This document shows positions 3,397 to 61,392 of a stretch of DNA of 64,000 nt, one piece after another. This stretch comes from a virus. The position numbers and the translations under genes were made by a program. Each line of letters begins with the position of its first letter. The stretch's first letter is position 1. The notes under the pieces were generated by a model, which worked only from the letters and a program-made list of their open reading frames with translations, searched no databases and was not told where the DNA came from. Where the stretch lies: the IMG/VR virus record IMGVR_UViG_3300044527_000952, positions 29,058 to 93,057 of that record; one strand, given 5' to 3'.

Positions 3397-4365
3397 ATGA
3401 TTTTTGTAACAGGTGGGTTGGGGTTTATTGGACATAATGTCGTACGACAATTAGAAAAGCGTAATCATGAAGTACGTATTATTGATAATTGCACTGATTA
3501 TGGTTTTATCCCAAAAGATGAATTATGCTATCTAGTTAAAGAACGTAAACAAGAACTCAAATCAATCGTACATAATTTCCATATTGCAGATAAACAATTG
3601 CATATGGTGTTCAATATGCTTAAACCACATACTGTCATACATCTTGCAGCTATGCCACGTTCAAAAATAGTTAATGCTAATCCTACATACGGTGCATATA
3701 CTCTAACAGAAGGATTATTAAATTTATTAGAATTATGTAAAAACCATAATGTTAAACGGTTTGTTTATGTCAGTAGCAGCATGGTATATGGCAATTGGAG
3801 CGGAACAATTGATGAATCTCACCCCACCAACCCAATCGATATATACGGTACGCTGAAATTAACAGGTGAAAAGTTAGTTAAATTATGGGCAAAACAACAT
3901 AATCGTGAATATACAATACTTCGACCAAGCGCAGTATACGGTCCATTAGACGTAGAAGATAGGGTATTAAGTAAGTTTGTTCTTAATGCCATGCGTGGAC
4001 AAGATCTTGTTGTACAAGGTGAACATGAAGTATTAGACTTTAGTTATGTTGAAGATGTAGCATGGGGTGTAACAAATGCTTCTATTTCTAAGAACGCAGT
4101 AAATAAAACTTATAATCTTACTAGAAATCAAACTGATTCAATCACGTTATATGATGCTGCCAAGTTAGCGGCACAGATAGTTGGTAAAGGAAATATAGTT
4201 ATTAATCCTAAAAACATTGACTATCCTAGTAGGGGTAAGTTAAATTCAGAATTAGCAAAAATAGACTTTGAGTATAATCCATATGTTGACCTTGAAATCG
4301 GTTTGGAATGCTATTACAAGTGGCTCGCAGACAGCACCTATTGGCAATCAAAAATTAGAAAATAG
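3397..4365 (+). CDS. NAD-dependent nucleotide-sugar epimerase/dehydratase
   Basis: TGGLGFIG, HLAA, SSSMVYG, YxxxK (YGTLK). Confidence 0.9.
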   Translation: MIFVTGGLGFIGHNVVRQLEKRNHEVRIIDNCTDYGFIPKDELCYLVKERKQELKSIVHNFHIADKQLHMVFNMLKPHTVIHLAAMPRSKIVNANPTYGAYTLTEGLLNLLELCKNHNVKRFVYVSSSMVYGNWSGTIDESHPTNPIDIYGTLKLTGEKLVKLWAKQHNREYTILRPSAVYGPLDVEDRVLSKFVLNAMRGQDLVVQGEHEVLDFSYVEDVAWGVTNASISKNAVNKTYNLTRNQTDSITLYDAAKLAAQIVGKGNIVINPKNIDYPSRGKLNSELAKIDFEYNPYVDLEIGLECYYKWLADSTYWQSKIRK

Positions 4366-5500
4366 TATTCCATTTATTCGTTTAGATCGTCAATACGAGT
4401 CTATTAAAGATGAATTGCTCAGTGTTACTGATGAAGTATTAAAAAGTGGTAAATTAGTCAATGGTAAGTACAAGTTTGATTTAGAAGAATATTTTTGTGA
4501 GTATTTACATTATAAACATGCATTTGCAGTGCATAGTGGAACACAAGCTTTAGAAATTATTGCTGAAGCTAATAAATTAGTAACATCATACAGAAAAAAA
4601 GAAAGTCATATCCTTTTACCTGATGTAAGCTATAAAGCTACATTACATGCTTTTATTCGTCATGGTTACAATGTTACCTTAGTTGATGTTGATGCTTATG
4701 GTATGATGAAGTGGGATGAAGTTACAAAAATTGTCGAACAAAATCCTGATATTATTTTTGATATTTGTATTGTAGGGTTATATGGTGCAAAACCATATTA
4801 CAATAATCATAAAGAAAATGATTTACGATTTAAAGCATTGAGCACAATTACTATACGTGGTGGTAAAGTATATGAAGATGGTGCGCAACATTGGTTAAGT
4901 GGTAAAAATGAAATGTCTACTGCTATGGCAATTAGTTTAGATCCTACAAAAAACTTAAATGCTAGTGGTAATGGTGGTGTTATTGTAACTAGTTATGCTG
5001 ATTTAGCAAATCATATTAGAGCAATTTGCAAAAATGGTTCAGAAAACAGTCTATTTTCTACACAAATAGGAACCAATAGTAAGTTAAGTGAAATTGATTG
5101 TGCACATGTTTTAGTACGTACTAAGCATATTGAAGCATGGCAACAACGCAGAAAAGATATTGCTGCCTATTATATGCGTGAATTCGCTAAACATGATATT
5201 GAAAACTTATGTGAATCAAAAGAAGAACGTATGTATGCATATCATAGCGTTAACAAGTTTGCGATTAGTGTAGAGAATCGTGATCGTTTGCAAGAATATC
5301 TACAGTTACATGGTATAGAGACTAAAATACATTACAAACAAAATTTATCAAGACATAGATTAGCTAAGAATAACTGTTCCTTTTTAGAGAATTCTTGGCA
5401 ATTTTGTGCGCATACATTATCTTTACCAATCTATCCTGAACTAACTGATGGTGAAGTTGAGCGAATAACACAGACAATTATCAAATTCATGCATAAATAA
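4283..5500 (+). CDS. DegT/DnrJ/EryC1/StrS PLP-dependent sugar aminotransferase (start uncertain)
   Basis: SGTQAL, EDGAQ, SLDPTKNL, LSLPIYPEL. Confidence 0.85.
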   Translation: MLTLKSVWNAITSGSQTAPIGNQKLENSIPFIRLDRQYESIKDELLSVTDEVLKSGKLVNGKYKFDLEEYFCEYLHYKHAFAVHSGTQALEIIAEANKLVTSYRKKESHILLPDVSYKATLHAFIRHGYNVTLVDVDAYGMMKWDEVTKIVEQNPDIIFDICIVGLYGAKPYYNNHKENDLRFKALSTITIRGGKVYEDGAQHWLSGKNEMSTAMAISLDPTKNLNASGNGGVIVTSYADLANHIRAICKNGSENSLFSTQIGTNSKLSEIDCAHVLVRTKHIEAWQQRRKDIAAYYMREFAKHDIENLCESKEERMYAYHSVNKFAISVENRDRLQEYLQLHGIETKIHYKQNLSRHRLAKNNCSFLENSWQFCAHTLSLPIYPELTDGEVERITQTIIKFMHK

Positions 5501-19490: not shown

Positions 19491-20555
19491 ATGGGAAAAC
19501 CCTTTGATATATCAAAATTTAGAAAAGAAGTTACAAAAAGTATAGAAGGTATTAGCGTAGGATTTCATGATCCCACTGATTGGATTTCAACAGGCAACTA
19601 TGCATTGAATTATCTTATCAGTGGTGATTTTAATAAAGGTGTACCACTTGGTAAAGTTACTGTATTTGCAGGTGAAAGTGGTAGTGGCAAATCATATATT
19701 TGCAGTGGAAATATCGTAAAAAATGCACAAGAGCAAGGTATATTTGTTGTACTAATTGATAGCGAAAACGCATTAGATGAAAGTTGGTTGCATGCGTTAG
19801 GTGTTGATACAAGCGATGATAAATTGCTAAAACTAAATATGGCAATGATTGATGATGTTGCAAAAACTATTTCAACATTTATGAAAGATTATAAAGAAAC
19901 ACCACTTGCAGAGCGACCCAAAGTATTGTTTGTTATAGATAGTTTAGGCATGCTTATGAGTCCAACTGAAGTAAACCAATTTGATAGTGGTGATATGAAA
20001 GGTGATATGGGACGTAAAGCTAAAGCACTAAAAGCATTAGTTACAAATTGTGTAAATATGTTTGGTAGTTATAATGTAGGATTAGTTGCCACTAACCATA
20101 CGTATGCTTCGCAGGATCCATACAATCCTGACCCTAACGTAAGTGGTGGACAAGGTTTTGTATTTGCTAGTAGTATTCTAGTAGCAATGAAAAAACTAAA
20201 GTTGAAGGAAGATGAAGAAGGTAACAAAACATCAGATGTGCTAGGCATACGTGCAGGTTGTAAAGTAATGAAAACACGTTTTGCCAAACCATTTGAAGAT
20301 GTTGAAGTACAAATTCCGTATGAAAAAGGCATGAATCCTTACAGTGGTTTTTTTGATTTGATTGAGAAAAAAGGGTTTGTTACTAGAGAAGGTAACCGTT
20401 ATATGTATACTGACTTGCATGGTGAAGTACATCGTTACTTCCGTAAAGAATGGTCAAAAAATGAAAACGGTATTATGGATTTAGTCATGAAAGAATTTTC
20501 ACAACGAGAAAAAATTGTAACTACAGAACTAGCAGAGGAAGAACAAAATGCTTGA
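19491..20555 (+). CDS. uvsX: RecA-like recombinase (UvsX)
   Basis: GESGSGKS, IDSENA, VIDSLG, TNHTY, KTRF. Confidence 0.92.
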   Translation: MGKPFDISKFRKEVTKSIEGISVGFHDPTDWISTGNYALNYLISGDFNKGVPLGKVTVFAGESGSGKSYICSGNIVKNAQEQGIFVVLIDSENALDESWLHALGVDTSDDKLLKLNMAMIDDVAKTISTFMKDYKETPLAERPKVLFVIDSLGMLMSPTEVNQFDSGDMKGDMGRKAKALKALVTNCVNMFGSYNVGLVATNHTYASQDPYNPDPNVSGGQGFVFASSILVAMKKLKLKEDEEGNKTSDVLGIRAGCKVMKTRFAKPFEDVEVQIPYEKGMNPYSGFFDLIEKKGFVTREGNRYMYTDLHGEVHRYFRKEWSKNENGIMDLVMKEFSQREKIVTTELAEEEQNA

Positions 20556-23570: not shown

Positions 23571-23930
23571 ATGCCACTAGTTCAATATATGGATCACACC
23601 CACCCTGATGCATTCGTAGATTTCGAAAAGCTTGAACCAATGGTTAATACAGGTTATACCAAACCATGTCCTGTATGCCAATGTTACGGTGGTTGGAATC
23701 TTAAACTCAATGCATATCCTTTACACAATTATCCTAATACTGCTGAAAATCGTCATCGTTATTCACACTTCCGTTCAAACTGCTCACATTGTAACGGGTA
23801 TGGTTATACGTTACCTACTGAAACTTGCAGTGGTCATGAGTGGGAGCGCAAGCAAAACCTAGGTCGATGCTACACTTTATACGTGTGTAAAAAATGCAAC
23901 AAGAATATGGAAGTTGATTCTAGCGATTGA
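23571..23930 (+). CDS. Cys-rich zinc-finger protein (DnaJ-type CxxCxGxG)
   Basis: CPVCQCYG, CSHCNGYG, CKKC. Confidence 0.65.
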   Translation: MPLVQYMDHTHPDAFVDFEKLEPMVNTGYTKPCPVCQCYGGWNLKLNAYPLHNYPNTAENRHRYSHFRSNCSHCNGYGYTLPTETCSGHEWERKQNLGRCYTLYVCKKCNKNMEVDSSD

Positions 23931-28722: not shown

Positions 28723-29224
28723 AGATTACATGAAAGCAATTAATTACAGAATATCTGAGGGTACAGAATACCTTTGGAAATGTTTTGGTGACAACCCATT
28801 TACCCTATCATATTGGGATAATGATCATGATGGAGTAAGTGCTGATATTACTTTTGACACACAAACACAAGAGGTATATTACGCCACTGTACATGATTAC
28901 GCAAAAAGACGGTCATATCGTTTGATCAATCCTGATTACGTTGAAGCATATCGTCAAGAATGTAAAGATAAAAATGTAGTTGAGAATAATGCTTATGATG
29001 AAGTTAATTATGTTACGTTAGAAACTGATGAGGACTTTATTGAAAAACTTACTGCTATTGTAAATAAACAACCATACAATACCAAAGTGCAAGTACCACT
29101 TGAATTAGATAAAGAAGAAATGTATAATCTAATGAGTTTAGCCCATGAGCGTGACATAACGCTAAACCAACTAGTGGAAAACATGTTATGGGAAGCTATC
29201 AACAACCACAAAACTAAGGTGTAA
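28709..29224 (+). CDS. phage protein with C-terminal ribbon-helix-helix-like motif
   Basis: AHERDITLNQLVE. Confidence 0.55.
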   Translation: MINLEDYMKAINYRISEGTEYLWKCFGDNPFTLSYWDNDHDGVSADITFDTQTQEVYYATVHDYAKRRSYRLINPDYVEAYRQECKDKNVVENNAYDEVNYVTLETDEDFIEKLTAIVNKQPYNTKVQVPLELDKEEMYNLMSLAHERDITLNQLVENMLWEAINNHKTKV

Positions 29225-30824: not shown

Positions 30825-32018
30825 ATGGTTACTTTAGTTAAACATGAATGGCATAGTGTTGATAGTCAATTTGCCGTTGAGCTTGATATAGACTTGTTAC
30901 AAGAAATTTATCCTGATAAGGATGAAGATGAACTACAATCAATTCTTGATGCGGTAGAAGATGGCTCATATGATATTGATGAGCTTATTGAACATGCTTG
31001 GGATAATGATGTTGAAATTATGTGGGAACGCCAATATGATGATTGGTATAGTGACCGCAAAGGTGGTTATGAAATTACATATGAATTAGGTGATGAAAAT
31101 AGTTGGCATAGTGAACCTGAACCTCCTTCACCTACACATAAATGCACCAAATGTCGTTGGAAAGGTAGCAAATACGAAACTAAAACTGAATTTTATAATG
31201 AAGATGGATCTATTCACACTGATGATGAACTAGAATTTCATCACACAGGTGATGTATGCCCAATGTGCGATAGTGCGTTAGAACTTACCCCTGAAGGTGT
31301 TGAGCAAGAAGCCAAAATGCAAAAACTGTACCAAGAACTTGATGATATTGAGTTGGATGATGATACTGAAGCTGAATCAGAATATCAACGTATACATCCC
31401 GCAGGTGAATATATTATCCGTATTTTTGGTCGTACCACTGAAGTTGGTGTTGGAAGAATTACTAAAGAACAATACGAACATTGGAGCATGGATGAACATG
31501 AATTAGACTTAGGTGCTGCTATTAATGAAGAATATGATTTCGATGAAAATGAAACTCCTGAAGCTGCACGTTTTACTAGTAGTGGATACTATGAATTCAA
31601 TGATGTAGCAGACTTTTATGGGATTGAAGAAGATTGTACGGTAGAAATTATTAATAGCGATGGTGAAACTATCTTTGAAGGTGAATTCTCTGAAATTTTT
31701 AATATCGGACATGGTGAAGAAGATTCAAGGGAAGAATGTTGTGAAGAAGTTGATGAATTGTATGCACATTCATACGGATCAGGTTACTTTCTTATGTACA
31801 AACAAGGTGGTAAAGGTGGGTCATATCAACATACATTAGTTGTTAATGAAGATTTAGACTTAGCTAAATTTAAAATTACCACGGTAGATGTTGATGGTAC
31901 TAGTCATATTAAAGGTATTTTTTATGACAATGAACAGCTTGATGATGAAGGTATTGATGAGGAGTACAATAATTGGAGAGGACAGTGGGCAGATTATTCT
32001 GTACATGAGGTAAAATAA
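30825..32018 (+). CDS. highly acidic multi-domain protein with Zn-ribbon
   Basis: CTKC...CPMC; D/E-rich. Confidence 0.6.
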   Translation: MVTLVKHEWHSVDSQFAVELDIDLLQEIYPDKDEDELQSILDAVEDGSYDIDELIEHAWDNDVEIMWERQYDDWYSDRKGGYEITYELGDENSWHSEPEPPSPTHKCTKCRWKGSKYETKTEFYNEDGSIHTDDELEFHHTGDVCPMCDSALELTPEGVEQEAKMQKLYQELDDIELDDDTEAESEYQRIHPAGEYIIRIFGRTTEVGVGRITKEQYEHWSMDEHELDLGAAINEEYDFDENETPEAARFTSSGYYEFNDVADFYGIEEDCTVEIINSDGETIFEGEFSEIFNIGHGEEDSREECCEEVDELYAHSYGSGYFLMYKQGGKGGSYQHTLVVNEDLDLAKFKITTVDVDGTSHIKGIFYDNEQLDDEGIDEEYNNWRGQWADYSVHEVK

Positions 32019-32977
32019 TGTTTAAAAAATTTGTAATTGGTTTGTCTTTGGTTTTAAGTAGTATAACGTTTGCACAGGATAAATGGGTTCCATCATATAC
32101 AGTAACGATGTTAAACCCATTTCCTGCAGGTGGGGTAACTGACCAACAACTACGATATATTGCAACAAAATTATCTGAACGTTGGAAACAACCTGTCATT
32201 GTGCAAAATAGGTTAGGTGCTGCGGGAACATTAGCTGCAGCATCACTGACCACTGCTAAGCCTGATGGACATACACTAGCTATTTTGACGGTGAATAGTT
32301 GGCGATATCCACACTATAATGAACTGTCATGGCACCCAATACGTGATTTTAAGTATGTGGTTGGTATGAATGCTTATACGTTGGGTATTATTGTTCGTGC
32401 TGATAGTCCATGGAAATCATTAGATGATTTGATTGCTGCGGGTAAAGCTGAACCTAATAAGTATAACTATGCTACCGTAGGAGTTGGGGGTGGTGGTCAA
32501 CTTATGATGATAGAAATTGATAATACCACTAATGCTAAATTTACTAACGTGCCTTATAAAGGTGGCACTGAATTTAACCAAGCATTACTAGCAGGTGAGG
32601 TACAATTTGTGGCTGATGCATCTAATTGGGCACCATTTGTTGATAGTGGACAATTTAGGGCATTAGCGATGGCAACAGAAAAACGTGTTGCAAAGTATCC
32701 TAATGTGCCTACGTTAACTGAAAAAGGTATTAAAGTAATTGGTCAAAGTCCATATGGATTAGTTGCGCCAAAAGGTACACCTGATCATGTTGCACAAGCT
32801 ATACATGATGCGGTTACTGATATTTTAAAAGAACCTGAAATGCAGGAATTGATGAAAAAGTTTGTATTAGTTCCATGGACTAAAACACCACAAGAATTTG
32901 AAGCATATGCTGCACAATATTTTCGTGATGTTAGACCATTATTAATCAAGGCAGGGTTAGTTAAAGATGCAAAATAA
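32018..32977 (+). CDS. tripartite tricarboxylate transporter substrate-binding protein (Bug/TctC)
   Basis: signal peptide, PFPAGGVTD, NRLGAAG, PDGHTL, VPYKGG, PKGTP. Confidence 0.9.
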   Translation: MFKKFVIGLSLVLSSITFAQDKWVPSYTVTMLNPFPAGGVTDQQLRYIATKLSERWKQPVIVQNRLGAAGTLAAASLTTAKPDGHTLAILTVNSWRYPHYNELSWHPIRDFKYVVGMNAYTLGIIVRADSPWKSLDDLIAAGKAEPNKYNYATVGVGGGGQLMMIEIDNTTNAKFTNVPYKGGTEFNQALLAGEVQFVADASNWAPFVDSGQFRALAMATEKRVAKYPNVPTLTEKGIKVIGQSPYGLVAPKGTPDHVAQAIHDAVTDILKEPEMQELMKKFVLVPWTKTPQEFEAYAAQYFRDVRPLLIKAGLVKDAK

Positions 32978-38288: not shown

Positions 38289-39545
38289 ATGGGTGAAGTA
38301 TATCATTTTCAAGAATGTAGTTTTTGTGGTAAACACAAGAACGTTGTCAAAAAACTGATAGTAGGTGAAGGTACTGCAATATGTAGTGATTGTGTTGAAT
38401 TATGTAATGATTTACTTAAGGATGAAGAACCACTTGAGGAAGATGCACCACGTAAGATAAGTTTTTATGCTGATGATATTAAATCATTTTTAGACAATTA
38501 TATTATTGGACAAGATGCTGCAAAAACTTTAATCAGTGTGGCAGTATCTAATCATTACAAGCGTGTCACAGCAGATACCAAAGAGTTAGAAATTCAAAAA
38601 GCCAATGTACTCATCCTTGGACCAAGTGGAGGTGGTAAGACACTAATGGCTAAAACAGTAGCCAAATATCTAGATGTACCATTTGTTATTGCAGATGCTA
38701 CATCCTTAACTGAAGCAGGTTATGTTGGTGATGATGTTGAAAGTATGATACAACGGTTAGTAGCTGCTGCTGATGGTGATATTGAGCGAGCAGAGCGTGG
38801 TATTATTTTTGTGGATGAAGTAGACAAAATCGCACGTAAAAGTGAAAGTGCAAGTATTACACGTGATGTTAGTGGTGAAGGTGTGCAACAAGCATTGCTT
38901 AAAATTGTAGAAGGTACCATTTGTCGTGTACCACAACAAGGCAAACGCAAACACCCAACCAACGATATGCTAGAAGTCGATACTAAAAACATTCTATTCA
39001 TTTCAGGTGGTGCTTTTGTAGGATTATCAGATATTATTTCACGTCGATTACACGGAAATAGTATTGGGTTTTCTGCACAGGTTGGTGGCACCGTATCCAT
39101 GGATGATATTTTGGCACAAGTTACACCTGATGATTTAACTAAGTATGGTATGATTCCTGAATTTACAGGACGTTTTACATGTCGTGTATCTATCAATGAG
39201 TTAACAAAAGACCAATTGGTTCAAATTTTGACTAAAGTTAAAAATAACTTTATTGAACAATATCAGTATTTACTAAGTTTAGATGAAATAGAGTTAACTT
39301 TTACTGATGCTGCTATTGAACAAATTGCAGAAAACTGTTTAAATTTAAAAACAGGTGCACGTGGGTTACAAAGTGAAGTTGAACGTGTGTTGTTACAAGT
39401 TATGTTTAATAGTAAACACCTTAAAGGTAAGAAAATAGAAATTGATAAAATGCACGTAGATCACCCTAATTTGCTAAATAAACATTGGGAATCCGCAGTA
39501 AAAGATTCTTACTTAGGATCCATTTTAAAAAAAGGGAAAAAATGA
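38289..39545 (+). CDS. clpX: ATP-dependent Clp protease ATPase subunit
   Basis: CSFCGK zinc finger, GPSGGGKT, TEAGYVG, RDVSGEGVQQALLK, IGF loop, TGARGL. Confidence 0.95.
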   Translation: MGEVYHFQECSFCGKHKNVVKKLIVGEGTAICSDCVELCNDLLKDEEPLEEDAPRKISFYADDIKSFLDNYIIGQDAAKTLISVAVSNHYKRVTADTKELEIQKANVLILGPSGGGKTLMAKTVAKYLDVPFVIADATSLTEAGYVGDDVESMIQRLVAAADGDIERAERGIIFVDEVDKIARKSESASITRDVSGEGVQQALLKIVEGTICRVPQQGKRKHPTNDMLEVDTKNILFISGGAFVGLSDIISRRLHGNSIGFSAQVGGTVSMDDILAQVTPDDLTKYGMIPEFTGRFTCRVSINELTKDQLVQILTKVKNNFIEQYQYLLSLDEIELTFTDAAIEQIAENCLNLKTGARGLQSEVERVLLQVMFNSKHLKGKKIEIDKMHVDHPNLLNKHWESAVKDSYLGSILKKGKK

Positions 39546-40503: not shown

Positions 40504-41523
40504 ATGAGAATTGAAGATGAAATCAAGCTTGATTTCAAGGATGTATTGATTCGTCCAAAACGTAGTACATTATCAAGTCGCAAAGAAGTAGACTTAATTA
40601 AATGGTATAAATTTAAACATAGTGGGTATGAATATGAAGGTATTCCCATTATGGCAGCTAATATGGATGGTGTTGGAACTTTAAAAATGGCAGAAACATT
40701 AAGTCAACATAGGTTATTCACCTGCCTTATTAAAACCTATAACAAAGACATTGATAATTTTTCTGTATTCAATGTAAACAAAGATTATTATGCTGTTAGT
40801 ACAGGAACTAGTGATGAAGATTTTCGAAATCTCAATACCATCGTTACAGGTATTGGTGCACAATTTATTTGTATTGATGTGGCTAATGGTTATAGCGAAC
40901 ATTTTGGTGATTTTGTTGAAAGCGTAAGAAATCGTTGGCCTGATAAAACAATTATTGCAGGTAATGTAGTTACTGCAGATATGACACAGGAGTTAATATT
41001 ACGTGGAGCAGATATTGTTAAAGTTGGGATTGGGCCTGGGAGTGTGTGTACTACTCGTGTACAAACAGGTGTGGGTTATCCTCAACTTAGTGCAATTATC
41101 GAATGTGCCGATGCCGCTCATGGTCTTGGTGGGCATATTATTGCTGATGGAGGGTGTACTTGTCCTGGGGATGTGGCTAAAGCTTTTGGTGCAGGAGCAG
41201 ATTTTGTAATGCTTGGTGGTATGTTTGCAGGGCACGATGAGGGTGGTGGTACCATAGAAAATGGACGTGTAATCTTTTACGGTATGAGTAGCGATACTGC
41301 TATGAATAAAACACATGGTGGTGTAGCAGAATATCGTTCTAGTGAAGGACGTACGGTAGAAATACCCTATAAAGGACAAGTTAAAAATACTGTGCTTGAT
41401 ATATTAGGTGGTTTACGCAGCACTTGTACCTATGTTGGTGCATCAAATTTAAAACAACTACCTAAATGCACTACATTTATTAAAGTCAACCGTCAAATTA
41501 ATGACGTGTTTATCCAAAAATAA
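40504..41523 (+). CDS. guaC: GMP reductase
   Basis: [45 protein letters not shown]. Confidence 0.95.
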
Positions 41524-47254: not shown

Positions 47255-47982
47255 TGTTTGATTTTTTAAAACGTAGAGAGTTAGTGTTTTCATGTAAAAT
47301 AACTGATACATTTTTATACAACTCTTTACCACCAAAATTAAGTTCTCAATGCTTACCAACTTGGTATAAAGAATTAAAACCACATTATGAATTAGAAAAT
47401 AAAGTGGGTTTAATTTATAAAACAGGAACAGTAAGACATTGTGCAGGTATTAAAAAAACATTAACTAGTGGGGTAATTGTCCCCATGTGGTCTGATTTAC
47501 TATTACAGATTAATCCCGATGGTACTTTTTTATACCAATTTTCCGATGAAGCGTCTGAAATACATACACATGATGGAAGACAATATGGAAATTTATTCAA
47601 AGATTCTATATTTTTAAAATTAACTTCACCTTGGGCATGTGAAGCTAACAGACCAATGAATTATTATTTGACACACCCAACTTATCATATTGGCTATGAA
47701 ACGGAGTTTCAGGTGTTGCCTGGGTATATTGATTTTTATTACACTAACGCACTTAACCCATTTATCGTATGTAAAATTAAACCTGAACCCTATCAATTTA
47801 TGATCCCTGGGGGTAGCCCTCTTTACCAACTTTTACCTGTTCATGATCATCGTGTAAAAATTAAAACCCAAGTTGTTTCTCTTGAAAAATTTAAATCATT
47901 AACTGTTCATAATCGCTTTTCTTTTGTAAAAACACATGATAGGTTTGTAAAGTATAAAAATATGATTTATGGAAAAAAATGA
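47254..47982 (+). CDS. conserved phage protein (dUTPase-like beta fold, DUF6065-like)
   Basis: PTWYK, TVRHC.G, SPW, PG.ID, GSPL.Q. Confidence 0.5.
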   Translation: MFDFLKRRELVFSCKITDTFLYNSLPPKLSSQCLPTWYKELKPHYELENKVGLIYKTGTVRHCAGIKKTLTSGVIVPMWSDLLLQINPDGTFLYQFSDEASEIHTHDGRQYGNLFKDSIFLKLTSPWACEANRPMNYYLTHPTYHIGYETEFQVLPGYIDFYYTNALNPFIVCKIKPEPYQFMIPGGSPLYQLLPVHDHRVKIKTQVVSLEKFKSLTVHNRFSFVKTHDRFVKYKNMIYGKK

Positions 47983-48761
47983 ACACTAAAGTATACAAGC
48001 AAGTTAAAAAATTTATTGATCTTTATGGGTTACCTAAAGAAATTGGTGTTACAGGTTGGATTTCAGAAATTAGTGAATGGACTTATCATGATAAAATAAT
48101 AGGTCAGTCTAATGAAGAATCTAAAGGTTGGGTTTATGTTCAACAAAAAAGCAGTAGTTTAAATGAATTAGATTACTACAATTATTGGGATACAGACTCA
48201 GTTTATGCCATAGCAGTATCAGTGTGTGACAATCGCACAAGTGATACGCAACTTTACTTTACCATACATGATAAAGATTTCTTCCTTGATTTATGTAACG
48301 AAGATGCAGATGGTAAAGGGTGGGAGTGGATTAGTGATGTTGATTTAGAAGAAATTGTTAGAGAACTTAATGGATACACTGTTGACCCAAATGATGAGAA
48401 ATACAATGATTTTAATCTTGATTCACAAGATTTTCTATGGAGTAACTGTGAAGAAAACATTATAGAAACTATCTACAGTCTACCTTATAATGCTTGTATC
48501 ATTACGTGGAATAATGGAGCATCTATTACGCTTACAATTAAAAAAGATAATATTACAGCAAAAGTAGTAAATCCACCAACAAAACATCATGTCTTTGTAG
48601 AATTACCAAGCATGGCTTATTTTAATGATATGGTTACTTGGTTACAAGGTAGTAAGTTATCTTATGAGTTGTTATGTAAACCTGATACAAATCATACCGT
48701 AGGGATTAGTTTTGAAAATGATGAACATGCAACTATGTTTAGTTTGAAATGGGCTAGATAA
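47979..48761 (+). CDS. protein with C-terminal F-x-L-K-W family domain
   Basis: ends ISFENDEHATMFSLKWAR. Confidence 0.6.
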   Translation: MNTKVYKQVKKFIDLYGLPKEIGVTGWISEISEWTYHDKIIGQSNEESKGWVYVQQKSSSLNELDYYNYWDTDSVYAIAVSVCDNRTSDTQLYFTIHDKDFFLDLCNEDADGKGWEWISDVDLEEIVRELNGYTVDPNDEKYNDFNLDSQDFLWSNCEENIIETIYSLPYNACIITWNNGASITLTIKKDNITAKVVNPPTKHHVFVELPSMAYFNDMVTWLQGSKLSYELLCKPDTNHTVGISFENDEHATMFSLKWAR

Positions 48762-53589: not shown

Positions 53590-54093
53590 GTGAAAGAAAA
53601 ATTTATAAAACTTTATGCAGATATTGCTAAACGAGTATCGGAATTAAGTTATGCTGTACGGTTGAAAGTTGGTGCGATTATTGTTAAAGATGATCGTATC
53701 ATCAGTATTGGTTATAATGGTATGCCTAGTGGATGGGACAATGGCTGTGAATATACTGAATTTATGCCTATCAACGACCCTACAGCAAAATTTCAAGACT
53801 ATCCTTTTACAGGTAATTTTTGGATTAATGGTCACAGCGTAGAAAGAAGATACAGACTAAAAACCAAACCTGAAGTATTGCATGCTGAATCAAATGCTTT
53901 GGCAAAATTAGCTAAGTCTAACGAGAGTGGGGATGGTGCTGATTTGTTTATTACACACAGTCCTTGTATCGATTGCGCTAAACTAATTTACCAATCAGGT
54001 ATTCGTCGTGTGTATTTTGGTACACACTATAGGGACGATGCAGGGATAAAATTTCTTGAAAAAAGTGGAGTAGAAGTTATTTCACATGGATAA
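53590..54093 (+). CDS. dCMP deaminase
   Basis: KVGAIIV, GYNG, HAESNA, SPCIDC. Confidence 0.92.
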   Translation: MKEKFIKLYADIAKRVSELSYAVRLKVGAIIVKDDRIISIGYNGMPSGWDNGCEYTEFMPINDPTAKFQDYPFTGNFWINGHSVERRYRLKTKPEVLHAESNALAKLAKSNESGDGADLFITHSPCIDCAKLIYQSGIRRVYFGTHYRDDAGIKFLEKSGVEVISHG

Positions 54094-54713
54094 TCATACC
54101 TTAACAGTTACCATACCATTTGGTAAGTTAGGAGATATTTTTGATTGGTGTCAACATAATTGCACAGGCGAATGGCATTTCGCTAATTTAGAAGTAGGTG
54201 GACAAGATGCAGGACATTATGTTGTAAGTTTTAGTAATGAAAATGATTGTAATTTTTTCGCAATGAGATGGATGTAGGTCAACGTTTTTTAATTTTTTCA
54301 GGGGTGCCTAATATTTCTACTCATGAACACTGTTGTTTTATCATAGATTTTACATGGTGGGTAGAAAATGATGCAGAAATTACAAGTTGGTTATTAAAAA
54401 ATATTGGGGTAAATAATTTTAAATTAGATGGTATTGTTCTACAATTTACCACAGCAGAACTACAATCATTTTTTTTGCTTACTTGGAGTTAATTATGATT
54501 ATTATTGTTGATTCTTTTGATTGCCAACAAGCAATGAACGATTTAGGTATTGACCAAGATAGCAATGAATTTGTACCTGCTTTTGAAAAAAGACATGATT
54601 GTTTTGTACACCATTACGTGTTATCTTGCGGAATTAAACAATTTAATTGTATTGCGTATATCGAGTTTCATAATGAAGCAAGTTATAACTTATTTGCGTT
54701 GAAATACATGTAG
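54086..54713 (+). CDS. three LRWS-family ORFs (54086-54277, 54268-54492, 54495-54713)
   Basis: C-termini FFAMRWM, FFLLTWS, LFALKYM. Confidence 0.65.
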
Positions 54714-54721
54714 CGAAATAC

Positions 54722-54750
54722 TTGACAACAATTTTTTAATATTTTATAAT
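54722..54750 (+). promoter_or_regulatory. sigma70 promoter upstream of the main array
   Basis: TTGACA-17-TATAAT, perfect consensus. Confidence 0.8.
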
Positions 54751-54762
54751 AGGAATGAATAA

Positions 54763-54912
54763 ATGTACAAATATCAACTTTGGGTACGACTTAACGACTA
54801 TCAAACCGCTAATACCATCATTTGGGCAAATAATGACTATGAAGCTAAAATGCTTGGTGAGGCACAATATGGAGTAGGCAATGTCCTCAACTACACAAGA
54901 ATTGACGATTGA
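54763..54912 (+). CDS. 49-aa protein (not in ORF track)
   Basis: MYKYQLWVRL...EAKMLGEAQYG; AGGA RBS after promoter. Confidence 0.6.
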   Translation: MYKYQLWVRLNDYQTANTIIWANNDYEAKMLGEAQYGVGNVLNYTRIDD

Positions 54913-55105
54913 AACTAGAGAAGTTGACAAAGAAGGTTGCTACGATTGGGTAGAAACTTATGCATTATTGCCTAAAATAACTATTTCAGGTAAAATGCTA
55001 TGGTTTAAGAAATGCTACAAACGTAGAGTGCGTATTGTTTGGAAACAACCATATGATATTGATTACATTATGGAGTATGCTACTGCCTTAGATTTATTGA
55101 AGTAA
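54881..55105 (+). CDS. hypothetical protein
   Basis: W...YALLPK.TISGK.LWFKK.Y pattern. Confidence 0.55.
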   Translation: MSSTTQELTIETREVDKEGCYDWVETYALLPKITISGKMLWFKKCYKRRVRIVWKQPYDIDYIMEYATALDLLK

Positions 55106-55107
55106 CC

Positions 55108-58100
55108 ATGAATGTTAAGCGATATAGTGCGCATACATGGGGATGGGATACTAATTGTAATGGGTGGTATCTAGCATATGTCAATAGTGGTAATTATGAA
55201 GAAGTCTTAGATTGGTTATACGATAATGTAGAAGGGTGTGAAAAACATTGTCGTTGGCGTTTTTTCCATGCGCATACTGAGGTGAAATTTAGACATGAAC
55301 GTGATTTTGTATGGTTTAATTTAGTGTGGCGATAATGGCATATTTTGTTCAAAATAATGAATTGAAACATGTTTTATATAAGTTGTGGGAAGATTCAGGA
55401 CAAACAAGTGTACCAAAATTGGGTACTGATTCAAGGATTCAGTATTGTGATTGGTATTATGATAATTATGGTATCAACCTTGTTTATAATGGACATGAGT
55501 TAAAAGGTATGATTTTTAAAAGTGCGGAACATTATACTTGGTTTATTTTAAATTATTCTTAATATGCTATTAACTAGAACTGAATTTATAAAATATGCTA
55601 ATAAACATTGGCCTAATATAGGTACGGATAATACTAGCCCATTATGGATACCTGAAGTAAGTTTAGGTGAACAATGTCAATATTTTTTGTTTATTCCTGT
55701 GATGCAACGTTGGAACAAAAGTGATTTTTGGGAATGGTCAGATAAATTATTGATTGGGAAAACACGATGTTTCATGCGTGGTAATGATGGTGAAATATGG
55801 GGATTTACCAATGAAGATGATATTAATATGTTTTTGCTGAGGTGGTCATGAAAGATTGTATCCAAGATTTTATTGTAGCTTGGAAGCATTATGATGGGCT
55901 TTCTGCTCCAACTATTACAAGGTGGAGCAATAGGTTAGCTGAGGGTGGCTATTATAGTGTTACATTGACAGGTCAAAGTCTTTTAGTTGATTGGCAGGAT
56001 GTTCATCGATGGTGTGAGGATGAGTTTGGCGAAAGACACTATACTTGGACTGGTAACGTATTTTGGTTCGAAAATGAATGTGATGCTAATTGGTTTGCCC
56101 TGAGGTGGTCATGAGTAAAAGAGATTGGTGTAATATTCCAGTAAAGGTTCCATATCGTAGCACAGGTCAATGGCGTGATCTGCGTATATGGCTGATGGAA
56201 AATGTCAACGACATGGACTATGATGCTGCTGGTGTAGATTTACAGGATTATGATAAGAGGGTCTTTTATTTTGCTAGATCAAAGGATGCTATATGGTTCG
56301 CACTGAAATGGAGTTAACCTATCACAAGATAGTCAGTTATGAAGGGCCAGACGCTCATCCTTTATACAATGCTATTAAGCACAGCATTGAATGGGTAGGA
56401 AAAAAGCATCAAGTCACGAGTCCTATGGATTTGAAATACTTGACTGAAGAAGAATTTGGTATTAAAATTGGAGCAGTGGAATACCTAAGGAACACATCAG
56501 GTAATTATAGATATAGGGTAAGTTTCCGTGATGAACAACATTATACTTGGTTTATATTGAGGTGGTCATGATTGGTTTTTATTTAGAAAATTTTCTAATA
56601 AATTGTCCCATATATTGGCAAAACTTTGTAAAGGCTAATCAGGATAATCCTGATCATGACATAGCCTTAAGAATACTTAATAGAAAACTTAAGCCCTTTA
56701 AAGCAAGATATGTTCCAGCAGATTATCTAGACCAAGATAAAGTCATATTTGAAGATGAGCATAGCTTAAATTGGTTTATATTAAGATGGGCGTAGTAAGA
56801 CCACAAGATTTTGAACATCGTATAGAAATTGAACCTATACTGACTAAAAGTCATGAAGATGCCATTCATGAATGGTGTAGGCGACATTTAGGTAGATACG
56901 GTGAAACTTGGTATACCTATTACAGCCACCAAAGTCATAAAATCATAGTATGTTTTCAGCATAGCCAAGATGCTGTTTGGTTTACTTTGAGGTGGTCATA
57001 ATGTATACTCTTAACTTAGCTGAATTACCCGCTACCAAGTCTGTAGAATTTTTAGTATGGATTTTTACTAATCAAATTGGAAATTATATGTCTCTGCTAG
57101 AATTAATAACCAAAGACGATAAATGGCATTATAAAACAAGTATTCCTTTTGAATGCACTGAACAAGAAGCAATGTTGGTAATTTTGAGGTGGTCGTGATA
57201 CATTGGCAATACACTGGGGTAGCACCGTGGGAAGATATCGTACGGTGGTGCTATGATAATCTGCAGGGTGAATGGTCTGCCGCTTGGGAAACCATACACT
57301 TCCGTAGTGAGAGTGATTATGTTTGGTTCATGTTGAGGTGGAGTTAATGACTTATATTAATGATTTTAATATTATAATTAATATCCAGGTATGGTATAGA
57401 CATAATCGCTTGGTTAATTTAGCCAACGATGATCGGGTTTGGCGTGAGGATTTTCGGGCTTGGTTGAAGGAACAAGGTTGTGAGATCGATCCAGGGCCTG
57501 GTAATAATAGGTTGTTGAGAAACGGTTTAGGCTTCGCACCCGGCTATGATCAATTACGATTTGAAGATGATCGGGATGCTACTGTGTTTATATTGAGGTG
57601 GTCATGAAAATTCAGCGAATACATGAATCAAGCGATGGTCAAAAGATATATGTGTTAGGCTCGGTTACTACACTTTCATTTCGTCAATATATGGATCAAT
57701 ACTCAGATTCAACTGTATGGAGTAGAGAACATCAGGCACATCATGCTATTAAACGACTCATAAAATTGGAATACGGTGAATTATATCAATGGTTATGTAG
57801 TCAAGATTGTCAAACAACCAATTGGATTGATGATAAAATATTTTCACTACCATATCAATTCAGTGCTCAAATCGATTTATTTGATTGGGGTATAGGGTTC
57901 AGGTCAAATGATCCCAAAGAAACTTTGTTTATATTGAAGTGGCAATGAATTATAATAGTAAATTTGATCAATATCATATGAAAATTACTGATAATTATAT
58001 TACGGTAAATCGTAATAAACTCGATATTGTTGAAGCTATAAAGTGGGTTAAAAAGAATTGCCCACACTATATAACAAATCAATATCACGGTAATTATCAT

Positions 58101-58830
58101 GGCAATGATCTTATTGATTTCTTTTTTTTAGACAAGCCAAAAGCTAAAGAAGAGATGACAATGTTTATTTTAAAATGGGCATAATGATTAATTTTGATAG
58201 TCCATTTAAAAAAGAATGGGAAGAACAATTAAAATGGTTGGATGAAACTATACAAAGAAATTATACCAATGATGGTAGACCATTCAATAAAAGTACAGTG
58301 GCTCAATTTTTAGAATGGCGCAGTATGGATAAAGAAACATGGAAGTTTAGAATACAAGGATTGCCTCCTACACTTATAGTTACTTTTAAAGACCCTGAAC
58401 ATGAATTCTTATATAATTTAAGATGGAGATAAATTGGCTATTGATGTAATCATTGAAGGAAAAGAGTTATCACAATATATGGACATTGTGCGTGAACTAC
58501 GTGCCTCAGGATTAAATCAAGGAGAACATTTTGATTTTAAATACATTCCATCAGTATATGATTACGAAAAATATAGAATTACTCCAAAAAAAGTTATCTT
58601 TACATTTTATGATGAACAATACTCTACATTATTTCGTTTAAAATATGAATCCTAAATATCCGTATATTGCATCTATTTGTCCTCCTGATGGTGGTAAACG
58701 TGGTTGGTATGATGTAATATCGTGGTGCCATGAAAAGATAGGTGCCACACATTCTCAATATGTAGGTGAAGGTGTTTTTGCATTTGAAAATGAAAGTGAT
58801 TATATGATGTTTTTGTTGAGGTGGTCATGA
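55108..58830 (+). CDS. contiguous run of 16 LRWS-family ORFs: 55108-55335, 55335-55562, 55564-55851, 55848-56114, 56111-56317, 56308-56571, 56568-56795, 56786-57001, 57001-57198, 57195-57347, 57347-57607, 57604-57948, 57945-58184, 58184-58432, 58434-58655, 58645-58830
   Basis: all end in a motif like WF-x-L-R/K-W-S and are stop/start coupled; 57195-57347 (50 aa) is missing from the ORF track. Confidence 0.8.
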
Positions 58831-59090
58831 ATATATATCAAGGTGTTACATTTAATAAAAAAATTGACGAAGCACTAGAACGTGCGGGTGGTAGGTTATT
58901 TCTAGCAAATTTAGATCGCCCTGCGTTAGAACAATTTGTACGTGAAATATTATTAGATGTTACAGAAGAAATTATTGATTGGAAAAATGCAAAAGATGAA
59001 AGTATGAATGATCTTTATTGGGATGGTTATGAACAAGGTATGGTAGATGCGCTTGTTGCTGTAAGATTATGGGGGCAAGACGTAGATTGA
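58827..59090 (+). CDS. hypothetical protein (possibly distant MNERI-like)
   Basis: starts at a junction repeat; ALERAG...LEQFVREIL. Confidence 0.55.
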   Translation: MNIYQGVTFNKKIDEALERAGGRLFLANLDRPALEQFVREILLDVTEEIIDWKNAKDESMNDLYWDGYEQGMVDALVAVRLWGQDVD

Positions 59091-59326
59091 ATACTAAGGA
59101 ATGTCAATGTTTTGAATGTCTCAAACCAAATTTTATCAAGTTTGTCAGTACCTTTATCGTATGTGACACATGTGGTAACAAACGTTGCCCACACGCTACT
59201 GATCATAGATTAGGATGCACCAACCGCAATGACCCAGGACAACTTGGCAGCAGATACGGTGTCTACCCACACCCATCTATAGAGTTATTAGATTTTTTGG
59301 ATGCTGCCAATGAAGATAAAGAATAA
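59069..59326 (+). CDS. Cys-rich zinc-binding protein
   Basis: CQCFEC, CDTCGNKRCPHATDH, C...N.PGQ.GS.Y. Confidence 0.65.
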   Translation: MGARRRLNTKECQCFECLKPNFIKFVSTFIVCDTCGNKRCPHATDHRLGCTNRNDPGQLGSRYGVYPHPSIELLDFLDAANEDKE

Positions 59327-60991
59327 TCATTTGCCACGTAATGGACAATATGAAATATTTACTACTCAAGGACGCACTTATTGTTTTGATGATCCATCGT
59401 TAGAAGTCATGCAAGCACCTAATGAAATGTTTGAATGGTTAAGAAATATGCCAAGAGAACTATGTAGACCACTAGATCATACTAATGTTGCATTTTATCT
59501 AACTCCTGAAATGTATACCTTGTGGAAAATTACTTGGTTATGATATAATGATGAGAAGACTTAAAAAAGAAATTTGGCCTTATAAAATTACAGTGAATTA
59601 TCCTGCTGATTCTCAAATTATTGATATTGAATTATGGTTAATTGAAAAGTTTGGTGAAAGAAGAAATAAGTGGAATGTAGTTTATGGTTTTTATAAGTCT
59701 GATTTTTACTTTAAAGAAGAATCTATGCTAACATTTTTTGCAATGCGATGGAACTAACATATAGTCAAATAGTATCTTATTTGAGGTGGTCATGAAATAT
59801 ATACAGGATTCTGACCTGTGGTATACACTACAGGTATATTTTAAAAATAATATCATGCCCAACTTGGTGAATGATGATAAAGTTTGGGCACATGAATTTA
59901 GACGATGGCTTAAAGAACAAGGTGCTGAAATTGAGCATTTAATGAACCAACGATTAGTGCGTAATAGTTTAGGTATAGCACCCCACTATGATAAATTGGT
60001 CTTTGAGGATGAACAAAGGTTAGCTTGGTTTGTGTTGAGGTGGTCATAAAATTAAAAAATTAATTAAAATTAACGGTAAACACTATAATGACTACATGCC
60101 ATGTGGCTTAAACATTATAGAAAAACTTTGGTGGTGGTTGGTTCCAGGTGTTCTTGTCAAAGTAAAATGGCCCAAGGGTATGATCACAGTAGATCATAAT
60201 GACCCACGTTGGTTTGATTGTGGTGGTGCAGTATGGGTAACCTACGAAAGCACTGATCCTAATGATCATTATCGCCCATGGATGGAAGCAAATATTGGTA
60301 AACAAAAGTGGGATTGGGATTGGGGATTTGTAGGCAATGATGTTTCAGATAACTGTTTAACCATTAAAGTTAGACAAAATAAGGCAGAGTATGCTACAAT
60401 GATGATTATGATGTGGGGATAGTATGCGAATAAAACCTTTTCAATCACGATATGCAGTAACTTGGGATGAATATCCTACAGGTATTTCCAACCCTAATGG
60501 TAAAGTGAAGATGGTAAATTGGTGTATCAAAAACTTAAAATTAGATTATATTACTTTGGGGTTTTACGCATATGACCCAAATGGGTTTTACGAACATAAT
60601 CCACCAAATGCTGTAAATTCTTGGATGTTAATTAATTTATCAAATGATATTTTGATAACAACAGAAGACGATGTTCATTTAAAATTATTAGACCATGGAT
60701 CACTAAAAGCAATTATACTTGATGATTACAGCAAAGCATGCGAATTAGCAGACTATGTTGATCAAATTCATACATTTAATATAATTAAAAGATACTGACA
60801 TGAGAACCGCACTTTTTCAGCGTGAATTCACCGTAAAGGAGGTAGGTCCTATTAGTGATTTTTTAAAACAATGTAGGAAAATGATGGGACAACCTTCACC
60901 TCAAACATGGGTGTTTCATGGAAATTATCATAAAATTGTTTTATATATTTATGACGATAAGTATGCCACATGGTTTAGTTTAAGGTATTGA
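59310..60991 (+). CDS. distal array ORFs: 59310-59543, 59548-59757, 59748-59795 (15 aa), 59792-60049, 60096-60422, 60424-60798, 60800-60991
   Basis: C-termini LWKITWL, FFAMRWN, YLRWS, WFVLRWS, MMIMMWG, (non-member), WFSLRY. Confidence 0.65.
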
Positions 60992-61271: not shown

Positions 61272-61392
61272 GACCGTACCAAGTCATTAAAAGACAAAAT
61301 ATAGAATAATCTATATAAATGTTAGCAATATCATCAATAGTTTTATGCATTAATTATTTATATAAATAAAAAATACTTTAAATTGACATTTT

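Follow-up and report, generated by a model that had tools for sequence, protein, structure and literature searches.

A protein tail that very probably supplies the next gene's ribosome-binding site, and may guide whole-gene exchange, in an array of small phage genes

Why should neighbouring genes of a large uncultured phage, whose products are 15-45% identical, end in the same 14 nucleotides? We analysed a window of 64,000 nucleotides (positions 29,058 to 93,057 of IMG/VR record IMGVR_UViG_3300044527_000952) that contains an array of such genes. A preliminary description of the repeat had proposed that it is at once the end of a protein, a Shine-Dalgarno site, and a possible recombination site. 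We consider it fairly probable that the family tail is both a Shine-Dalgarno/start module and a preferred crossover point for short-homology recombination.

The repeated junction

A search for TGAGGTGGTC[A/G]T[G/A]A that allowed at most one mismatch found nine copies on the plus strand between 55838 and 60049 (starting at 55838, 56101, 56558, 56988, 57185, 57594, 58817, 59782, and 60036), and no further copies elsewhere in the 93-kb virus record. Shuffled sequence gave a mean of 0.49 matches, and 0 of 100 shuffles reached 10. The nine copies are exactly the number first described, with the same fixed codon choice: read as final codons they are CTG or TTG, AGG, TGG, TCA or TCG, and then TGA or TAA. 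In eight of the nine, as claimed, the stop codon overlaps the next start (six ATGA, one GTGA, and one TAATG). The distance from GAGG to ATG is 5 nt. Copy 9 is the one without an overlap and is followed by a 46-nt AT-rich spacer and then an ATG at 60096. Pairwise identity among the nine copies is 96% within the motif, 40-50% just upstream, and 30% downstream. Some neighbouring copies have up to 24 nt in common. Although the count of nine motif copies holds, there is also a tenth GAGGTGG junction, at 57335, in which the serine codon is AGT. The features of the array are:

54086 to 60991, plus strand: head-to-tail array of about 25 small paralogous genes (50-125 amino acids), from the ORF map, gene tails, and family alignment
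54722 to 54750, plus strand: sigma-70 consensus (TTGACA, 17 nt, TATAAT) with 12 of 12 matches, in a short gap inside the array; consensus match only
55838 to 55851, plus strand: junction copy 1, end of gene 55564-55851 (LLRWS*); ATGA overlap, start at 55848
56101 to 56114, plus strand: junction copy 2, end of gene 55848-56114 (ALRWS*); ATGA overlap, start at 56111
56303 to 56317, plus strand: alternative junction, LKWS* as CTG AAA TGG AGT TAA; the A+TG of Lys-Trp is the next ATG (56308)
56558 to 56571, plus strand: junction copy 3, end of gene 56308-56571 (ILRWS*); ATGA overlap, start at 56568
56988 to 57001, plus strand: junction copy 4, end of gene 56786-57001 (TLRWS*); TAATG overlap, start at 57001
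57185 to 57198, plus strand: junction copy 5 (TCGTGA), end of gene 57001-57198; GTGA overlap, GTG start at 57195
57334 to 57347, plus strand: tenth GAGGTGG junction, TGAGGTGGAGTTAA (LRWS), end of gene 57195-57347; TAATG overlap, start at 57347
57594 to 57607, plus strand: junction copy 6, end of gene 57347-57607; ATGA overlap, start at 57604
58817 to 58830, plus strand: junction copy 7, end of gene 58645-58830; ATGA overlap, start at 58827 of the non-family gene 58827-59090
59748 to 59795, plus strand: 15-codon mini-ORF MELTYSQIVSYLRWS*, which carries junction copy 8 (59782-59795); ATGA overlap, start at 59792
60036 to 60049, plus strand: junction copy 9 (TCATAA), end of gene 59792-60049; no coupled start

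The alternative junction type also occurs at 54263-54277, 56781-56795, 58170-58184, and 59743-59757. The array genes end in F-x-L-[RK]-[WY]-x, and a few unrelated small genes are interspersed among them (at 58827-59090 and 59069-59326). From its match to the consensus, the site at 54722-54750 may be an early promoter that serves the run of genes after it.

The mini-ORF at 59748-59795 starts at an ATG that is made from the CGA+TGG of the preceding tail, and its N-terminal 11 codons have about 70% nucleotide identity to 56308-56340. This similarity suggests that it is a scar, left by a deletion within a paralogue of 56308-56571. The same scar is present in G001, a close relative of the window (95-99% identical).

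A large family of proteins with the same tail

The preliminary description was right that the motif is a protein end: a profile of the LRW-tail family matched 1390 clusters at E < 1e-3. The exact spelling of the motif recurs in at least 119 viral contigs. Copy 8 is the one that does not fit, as it ends the mini-ORF and not a full-size protein. No Pfam, PHROG, or NCBIfam model matched the family. The family HMM identifies 23 family ORFs in the window, and 22 window members align. The domain is about 60 amino acids, is always C-terminal, and has a conserved W, G, W, F, E-x-D, and F-x-L-[RK]-W; it ends one residue past the last tryptophan (LRWS, LRWA, LKWS, and similar tails). W30, W42, F57, F66, L68, and W70 are each at least 90% conserved among 111 sequences. 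In the AlphaFold2 model (pLDDT 84.5), the fold is beta-alpha-beta-beta-alpha and the tail lies within the last helix. Because [RK]W is retained in 28 of the 41 family ORFs that have no downstream start, the tail is also a feature of the protein. The family members are probably early host-directed proteins. We flag this very large family, which has no name, as a target for study.

The tail as a ribosome-binding site

Against the canonical 3' end of 16S rRNA (GAUCACCUCCUUA), the motif is predicted to form a duplex of 9 pairs at about -14 to -16 kcal/mol (about -14 for GAGGTGGTC), which agrees with the pairing and the 5-nt spacer given in the preliminary description; the canonical end is assumed and may differ from the host's. 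Other spellings of the tail are predicted to pair with the same end at -4 to -8 kcal/mol. Upstream of other genes of this phage are AGGA, GGAG, or GAGG sites. The junction RNA is without structure. As in known coupled gene pairs, co-directional genes overlap at eight of the nine copies and at the 57335 junction, and, if the canonical 16S end is assumed, an intragenic Shine-Dalgarno site lies 5 nt before the downstream start, within the 5-10 nt range of such pairs.

Codon usage links the motif to the next gene. AGG makes up 8-9% of arginine codons in this record, but the tail arginine is AGG in 10 of 14 cases (p = 9e-9; because family copies are phylogenetically non-independent, this p-value and the next are optimistic). 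Across 503 family ORFs from 112 sources, AGG accounts for 8% of arginine codons in gene bodies and 77% at the tail. These loci were found through the motif itself; we corrected for this by dropping the matching copies, which lowers tail AGG to 60%, and some bias may remain. With those copies dropped, AGG is used in 106 of 161 tails (66%) with a start 6-14 nt downstream, and in 4 of 28 tails (14%) that lack any start within 25 nt (odds ratio 11.6, p = 4e-7). Family-wide, 223 of 280 AGG tails have a stop-start overlap (4-nt ATGA or GTGA, or 1-nt TAATG), and tail codons that end in A are associated with a start formed by A+TGG. These patterns strongly support the earlier reading of the motif as a Shine-Dalgarno site for the next gene: it is very probable that ribosomes bind to these tail bases and that the same bases begin the following gene.

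We propose that the 14-mer is the 3' end of family members in one tightly packed, co-directional array, where three constraints would act on it. The last helix of the protein ends in L-[RK]-W-x; writing leucine as xTG and arginine as AGG gives G-AGG-TGG, which would be a strong Shine-Dalgarno site for a start 5 nt further on; and that start is contained in the final sense codon and its stop (TCA TGA), so that a terminating ribosome could reinitiate or a new ribosome could bind. In the second spelling, AAA or AGA followed by TGG makes the next ATG out of the Lys/Arg-Trp codons. We infer that ribosomes bind at these junctions and that translation is coupled across them, for which the link between AGG and a following start is indirect support.

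An alternative is that the motif has no role in ribosome binding and is left over from recent tandem duplication or gene conversion. Copy 9 would fit this, as would the stretches of up to 24 nt that some neighbours have in common. However, the paralogues are 15-45% identical in protein and their flanking DNA is 30-50% identical, the exact spelling is found in those 119 or more contigs, and the use of AGG follows the presence and the spacing of a downstream start. We consider descent alone to be very unlikely. Since copy 9 retains the full motif without a gene to couple, descent also contributes.

An internal Shine-Dalgarno site beside a stop codon could instead act mainly as a pause or frameshift stimulator that fuses adjacent proteins. 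A site of this kind near a stop codon stimulates +1 frameshifting in prfB, and each next gene of the array is in the -1 frame. But neither G-GTG-GTC-ATG-A nor TCA-TGA offers a slippery sequence, a proper start codon always follows at a spacing that suits the Shine-Dalgarno site, and tails without a downstream gene drop AGG, so we give this explanation almost no credence.

If this reading of the tail holds, the conserved end of a family protein would double as the place where ribosomes bind and initiate on the following gene, and a phage could express an extended series of rapidly changing accessory genes that have no signals between them. For annotation, this would explain the rare AGG codons and the mini-ORFs at gene ends. 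It is also a warning: synonymous recoding of LRW tails would break expression of the next gene.

Recombination at the junctions

In the arrays of natural relatives, four indel or swap events have both breakpoints inside a shared junction of 14-25 nt, and four more have one breakpoint in a junction. L092 and L150 lack two and three genes, respectively, that are held by L088, L143, L156, and L157, and the deletion joints are seamless, inside shared junctions of 25 nt and 17 nt. Between L112 and L148, one gene is exchanged for two between two junctions. The MSKREIYGI... cassette lies behind three different upstream genes and is always joined exactly at the motif. In L053/L102, the left side of an insertion has no junction.

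Compared with G001, the window shows two genes swapped for four, from junction 57185 on the left to 57594 on the right. This is the one event of four that runs from junction to junction; the other three have one breakpoint in a tail. Gene 58827-59090 is absent from G001, and the left breakpoint is immediately after GAGGTGG. The tract with 4-9% divergence (indels 1-3) runs from 56257 to 57874, and its edges are inside genes and not at motifs. So the proposal that the motif is a recombination site is supported in part, by the clean gain, loss, and swapping of whole genes in related arrays, and once against G001, but not by the edges of the divergent tract nor by three of the four G001 events.

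Could these breakpoints reflect selection only? The junction would then be a translation signal, indels would be random and illegitimate, and the survivors would be those that keep whole, translatable genes. Selection that keeps genes intact and translated would be enough to make the surviving breakpoints cluster at gene borders. Consistent with this, three of the four events between the window and G001 have one end outside a junction, indel 4 has microhomology of at most 1 nt, and the L053/L102 insertion has no junction at its left. The mini-ORFs (15 codons at 59748-59795, and 6 codons in G001) show that imprecise deletions occur and are the residue that such deletions should leave. On the other hand, four events are seamless within 14-25 nt of shared identity on both sides, which is a signature of homology guidance and is unlikely for random breaks, and the MSKREIYGI... 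cassette is joined exactly at the motif behind all three of its upstream genes. We consider the selection-only explanation unlikely.

We return to homology at the junction itself. The junction is the sole stretch of 14-25 identical bases among paralogues that are 15-45% identical, which would make it the preferred crossover point. Short-homology recombination or slippage there would delete, insert, or swap whole genes, and each surviving gene would stay translatable after the exchange. In effect, recombination could safely remove or insert whole genes at this short stretch of identity. The preliminary description named UvsX/UvsY as candidate drivers, and the window does contain a candidate:

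19491 to 20555, plus strand: RecA/UvsX-like recombinase gene (Pfam PF00154, E = 3.7e-16)

Homology-dependent exchange might be driven by this gene.

Comparison with known systems

The preliminary description compared the array to an integron and reported no visible integrase. The second point stands: no tyrosine integrase (PF00589) was found in G000 (93 kb) or G001 (94 kb), both of which are records that are about 26% complete, while 14 of 14 control genomes were positive. The analogy itself fails in what defines an integron, as there is also no hairpin or inverted repeat at the junctions (nine 90-nt windows, z from -0.9 to +2.2, with no shared structure). With neither an integrase nor a hairpin site, short-homology shuffling is indicated and not an integron. 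Like integron arrays, these are same-strand and mostly promoterless cassettes that are expressed from upstream and are gained or lost as units at a repeated site. But we found no IntI-type integrase or attC hairpins, the events are imprecise, and the cassettes are mostly paralogues of one family.

An unseen recombinase might still recognise the junction and excise and insert circular cassettes as in an integron. The cassettes do sit behind a consensus promoter, whole genes are gained and lost at the repeated site, and an integrase could lie elsewhere, given how incomplete the records are. Against this, all 14 controls score for PF00589 and neither record does, the junction has no inverted repeat or stable fold, and the crossover points vary within the shared stretch, with many events imprecise. 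We judge a site-specific system of this kind to be highly improbable.

The closest concepts are translational coupling and the PeSL (promoter-early stem-loop) cassettes of T4-type phages. Shine-Dalgarno sites inside genes at ATGA or TGATG overlaps are known to act in reinitiation (PMC6728339), and coupling by termination and reinitiation is likewise established at ATGA or TAATG overlaps with the Shine-Dalgarno site inside the upstream gene (PMC6728339, PMC10666635, PMC12548453). Downstream Shine-Dalgarno sites also influence which codons and stops upstream genes use at their 3' ends (PMC2784483, PMC8410138). Similarly, the array genes are co-directional and overlap by 4 or 1 nt, with a strong site 5-8 nt before the start and in the upstream coding sequence, and with codon choice at the 3' end bent to fit it. 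Unlike in the usual coupling, the putative site is built into a conserved protein motif of a whole family (about 1400 clusters), so that every joint of the array has one fixed 14-25 nt module, and a second family-wide spelling makes the start from Lys/Arg-Trp codons.

PeSL cassettes shuffle modular ORFans in hyperplastic regions of T4-type phages, and their mini-circles have been demonstrated (Arbiol et al. 2010, PMC2839356; Comeau et al. 2014, PMC4122927). As with PeSLs, the small non-essential phage genes are separated by copies of a short, conserved signal for expression, a RecA/UvsX-type recombinase is present, indels and replacements between close relatives break at these copies, and recombinants keep a working one. 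The likeness is in how they work and is not an identity. A PeSL is an intergenic promoter plus terminator of about 100 bp, while the LRW junction is 14-25 nt, wholly coding, and acts at translation. There is no PeSL-type unit at the junctions, which have no intergenic space and fold no better than shuffles; promoter-like sites are not enriched (53 found, 54.4 expected), and none of the 6 terminator-like sites are at junctions. If the recombination part of our proposal is true, the PeSL idea of regulatory repeats at which genes are shuffled would no longer be limited to transcription signals of T4-type coliphages and would cover a translation signal of large uncultured phages too.

More speculatively, the LRW junction could be the attachment point of a cassette exchange network that needs no integrase. 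Recombination between junctions would excise single genes as small circles or fragments, and these would re-enter any other junction in the same or a co-infecting phage, always with a ribosome-binding site ready. We are doubtful of this, but consider it possible. If so, the variants of one small protein, probably directed at the host, that would be shuffled among large uncultured phages number well over a thousand, and the network would be the translational counterpart of the PeSL mini-circles.

Finally, tandem arrays can change by unequal crossing-over or by deletion between short direct repeats, as in the T4 rII deletions between short repeats. Here too, gene number would shift when neighbouring paralogues exchange where they are most similar. 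The difference is that the usable homology is confined to a junction that is kept identical by translational and protein constraints, so the products are whole genes in register and are not chimeric.

The array and its protein family

From 54086 to 60991, the + strand carries about 25 head-to-tail ORFs of 50-125 amino acids. Their common feature is a C-terminal block (h-x-F-x-x-E-x-D-x-x-x-F-x-L-[RK]-[WY]-x-stop), and the identity between paralogues is only 15-45%. At E<1e-3, a profile built from 22 of the window's members matched 1390 clusters (representatives at 50% identity). These proteins are almost all 55-100 amino acids long with the domain at the extreme C-terminus, and LRWS is their most frequent tail. 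The source databases label them hypothetical, and scans of up to 22 members against Pfam, PHROGs and NCBIfam gave nothing meaningful. The AlphaFold2 model, from 111 homologues, is confident (pLDDT 84.5): a small beta-alpha-beta-beta-alpha domain whose final helix includes the tail. When we compared this model to PDB with Foldseek, there was nothing better than E 0.3; in BFVD, the only matches were to uncharacterised proteins from uncultured phages and, weakly, to Atu_ph07, and the ESM Atlas returned only hypothetical viral clusters. Given the profile census, the confident model, and the lack of any library or solved-fold match, we consider the family to be real, large, and unnamed. The searches of sequence libraries, PDB, BFVD and the ESM Atlas gave no basis for proposing a function.

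The end of a 267-amino-acid ORF (47979-48761), MFSLKWAR, is family-like, and the small domain may therefore also exist as a fusion to a larger N-terminal part. The database protein P0055 (799 amino acids) has seven profile matches and could be an array read-through that was wrongly called as one protein.

Two genes inside the array do not belong to the family:
58827-59090, missing in G001 (a close relative from IMG/VR)
59069-59326, Cys-rich and zinc-ribbon-like

The ATG of the second gene is formed by TTA-TGG (Leu-Trp), close to the 3' end of the first gene. Its counterpart in G001 has an apparent TTG start, 7-10 nt past the GAGGTGG in the family gene before it.

The junction repeat

A pattern scan of the window for TGAGGTGGTCATGA with up to 2 mismatches found nine + strand copies in the array, from 55838 to 60049, while shuffled sequence had a mean of 0.49 matches. 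One extra two-mismatch match, at 23826, is unrelated, and a degenerate form of the pattern had no further occurrence across the 93-kb record. The pairwise identity of the nine copies is 96% in the 14-mer, 40-50% over the 48 nt upstream, and 30% downstream: the 14-mer is a sharp island of identity with no long repeat around it.

Every copy consists of the four final codons and the stop (xTG AGG TGG TCA/TCG TGA/TAA) of a small ORF. As the preliminary description had noted, the codons are fixed, 5 nt separate GAGG from the ATG, and eight of the nine stops overlap with the start that follows. The overlap is ATGA in six copies, GTGA in one, and TAATG in one. Copy 9 retains the motif with nothing downstream to couple. 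The reading of the junction as a protein end also holds up, as the copies are the tails of small ORFs of this very large family. The remaining members have other tails, spelled with different codons (LKWS, LRWA, LKWQ, LKWA, LRWR, MRWN, MRWM, LKYM or LRY).

The junction as a probable ribosome-binding site

It had also been proposed that each junction is an extended Shine-Dalgarno site for the next gene. The predicted duplex between the junction and the canonical 16S 3' end, which may not be the host's, has nine pairs and an energy of about -14 to -16 kcal/mol, versus -4 to -8 kcal/mol for alternative spellings of the same amino acids. AGGA, GGAG or GAGG is found upstream of other phage genes, which implies that the host uses Shine-Dalgarno sites. 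Predicted folding of the junction RNA showed no excess over shuffles.

The key evidence for this reading is comparative and lies in the choice of codons. AGG accounts for 8-9% of arginine codons in the record (CGT, 51-54%), versus 10 of the 14 arginine codons in tails (p 9e-9). TTG plus CTG account for 20% of leucine codons, and in all 10 AGG tails the preceding leucine codon ends in G. As a comparison sample, we took viral contigs with the exact junction spelling, of which there are at least 119. In 112 non-redundant sources, an HMM detected 503 family ORFs, and AGG was 8% of arginine codons in their gene bodies versus 77% in their tails; it was still 60% in the tails once all copies of the search pattern were dropped. 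We also removed the copies that match the search pattern before comparing classes of tails.

Tail codons by distance to the next start
Start 6-14 nt past the Arg/Lys codon: AGG in 106/161; any G-ending codon in 86%
No start within 25 nt: AGG in 4/28

The odds ratio for AGG between these classes is 11.6 (p 4e-7), with the caveat that the copies are not phylogenetically independent. Among family ORFs without a downstream start, [RK]W is retained in 28 of 41, so the tail is also a protein feature, on which the Shine-Dalgarno site would be overlaid via codon choice. Both the protein-end and the ribosome-site readings of these sequences are well supported. Intragenic Shine-Dalgarno sites at overlapping gene pairs are known (PMC6728339), as is the pressure of such sites on 3' codon usage (PMC2784483, PMC8410138), and the codon pattern here agrees with both.

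Gene content of the window and G001

G001 (94 kb) shares 95-99% identity with the window, and its indels are all within the array. With gene 57604-57945 as the query, G001 was the only IMG/VR relative that we found, along with two metagenome contigs (L140 and L141). These are colinear with the window and their arrays are identical to it, so they add no events. Both do differ from the window at a 2OG-Fe(II) oxygenase gene, where 20 nt are deleted just upstream of the gene (61368-61387) and 6 nt are inserted within it (61655). They diverge from the window by 3-4%, mostly downstream of 61.3 kb. We found no relatives with the 2OG oxygenase as the query.

Differences in gene content between the window and G001
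Indel 1, junction at 56317: extra family gene (141 amino acids) in G001; left break in the tail, right break within the next gene, ~30 nt from its start
Indel 2, junction at 56795: two extra genes and a 6-codon mini-ORF in G001; left break in the tail, right break within the next gene, ~12 nt from its start
Indel 3, 57195-57607: two genes in the window versus four in G001; identity ends directly after GAGGTGG at 57185 and returns at the 57594 junction
Indel 4, 58827-59090: non-family gene missing in G001; left break directly after GAGGTGG at 58817, right break outside any junction with microhomology of at most 1 nt

Five of the eight ends are in a tail junction, and only one event runs from junction to junction. 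The divergence between the window and G001 is 4-9% within 56257-57874 versus 0-1% outside, and this tract holds three of the four differences in gene content (indels 1-3). Neither edge of the tract coincides with a junction, as both lie inside genes. The jump in divergence and the location of the edges suggest that 56257-57874, which contains indels 1-3, is a diverged segment of the array that was imported by ordinary homologous recombination.

A second type of junction, and putative deletion scars

Across the family, in tails with AAA-TGG or AGA-TGG, the A and TG mostly form the ATG of the next gene. The window has this second type of junction (A+TG start) at 54263, 56303, 56781, 58170, and 59743.

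A mini-ORF of 15 codons (59748-59795, MELTYSQIVSYLRWS*), which is also in G001, starts at an ATG formed by CGA-TGG in the tail of gene 59548-59757. At its other end is the full junction motif from which gene 59792-60049 starts. Codons 1-11 match those at the start of 56308-56571, and the last four encode LRWS. The mini-ORF resembles what an internal deletion would leave of a paralogue of 56308-56571, and may serve to relay translational coupling. In contig L138 of G001 (G001:C1), at about 40683-40703, a mini-ORF of 6 codons (MSKVFA*) separates a junction motif from the ATG of the following gene. It begins with codons similar to those for MSKR, the N-terminus of window gene 56111-56317. This is a putative second deletion scar, with the stop-start overlap preserved.

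Breakpoints in other arrays

Seven related contigs have arrays of two forms:
Form 1, A-B-C-I/N-F-G-E-J-K-L-M-H: L088, L143, L156, L157 (L077 partial)
Form 2, A-B-C-N-E-O-H: L092, L150

The two differences between these forms, of two genes and of three genes, are seamless, with the joints within 25 nt and 17 nt of shared sequence. Between two junctions, one of the contigs L112 and L148 has a single gene and the other has two. The cassette that starts with MSKREIYGI has three different upstream genes, and the join is always exactly at the motif. In the pair L053/L102, a family gene is inserted with a junction on its right side only. In contrast, L077 and L088 (97% identical) differ outside the array by an ORF of 277 amino acids with no junction motif. 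This ORF, at an intergenic site (365-1264 of L077, reverse complement), may be a mobile gene.

Overall, four events have both breakpoints in a junction and four have one, and there are also scars of imprecise deletions. The proposal that the junction is a recombination site is thus partly supported: the first four events fit it at both ends and the other four at one end, and the edges of the 56257-57874 tract lie off the motifs. Our reading of these alignments is that the junction is probably a favoured, but not the sole, crossover point, and that homology-guided exchange and selection-filtered random deletion are both likely to be at work.

Comparison to known systems

The likeness to an integron array did not hold up. 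We did not find a tyrosine integrase in either ~93-kb record, the junctions have no inverted repeat and no attC-like fold, and the position of the joints is not fixed to one nucleotide. Together, these make an integron-type mechanism unlikely, and we rejected it. We also rejected frameshifting, as there is no slippery site. As in PeSL (PMC2839356, PMC4122927), the junction marks where small accessory genes get shuffled, but the intergenic promoter-terminator unit of PeSL is absent from the junctions. We consider the system to be a variant of translational coupling and repeat-mediated cassette shuffling, built on a very large family of uncharacterised proteins.

The source phage

The window makes up the final 64 kb of an IMG/VR virus record, which is 93 kb long and has 35% GC. 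CheckV estimates the completeness of the record at about 26%, which implies a large phage. The window encodes a T4-type large terminase, a DNA ligase, ClpX, and a RecA/UvsX-like gene. We found no close DNA relative among deposited phages, and neither a near-DNA search with the array nor tblastn with two family members had a match in 50,697 records of cultured or deposited phages.

One of the array's few gaps contains a perfect sigma-70 consensus (54722-54750, + strand; TTGACA, 17 nt, TATAAT). As a match to the consensus only, it suggests that the downstream run could be an early operon that is transcribed by the host polymerase.

The phage also has cell-like genes, which may be clues to its host:
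32018-32977, TctC/Bug-type periplasmic binding protein
38289-39545, ClpX
40504-41523, IMPDH/GMP-reductase family enzyme
3397-5500, sugar epimerase with DegT aminotransferase
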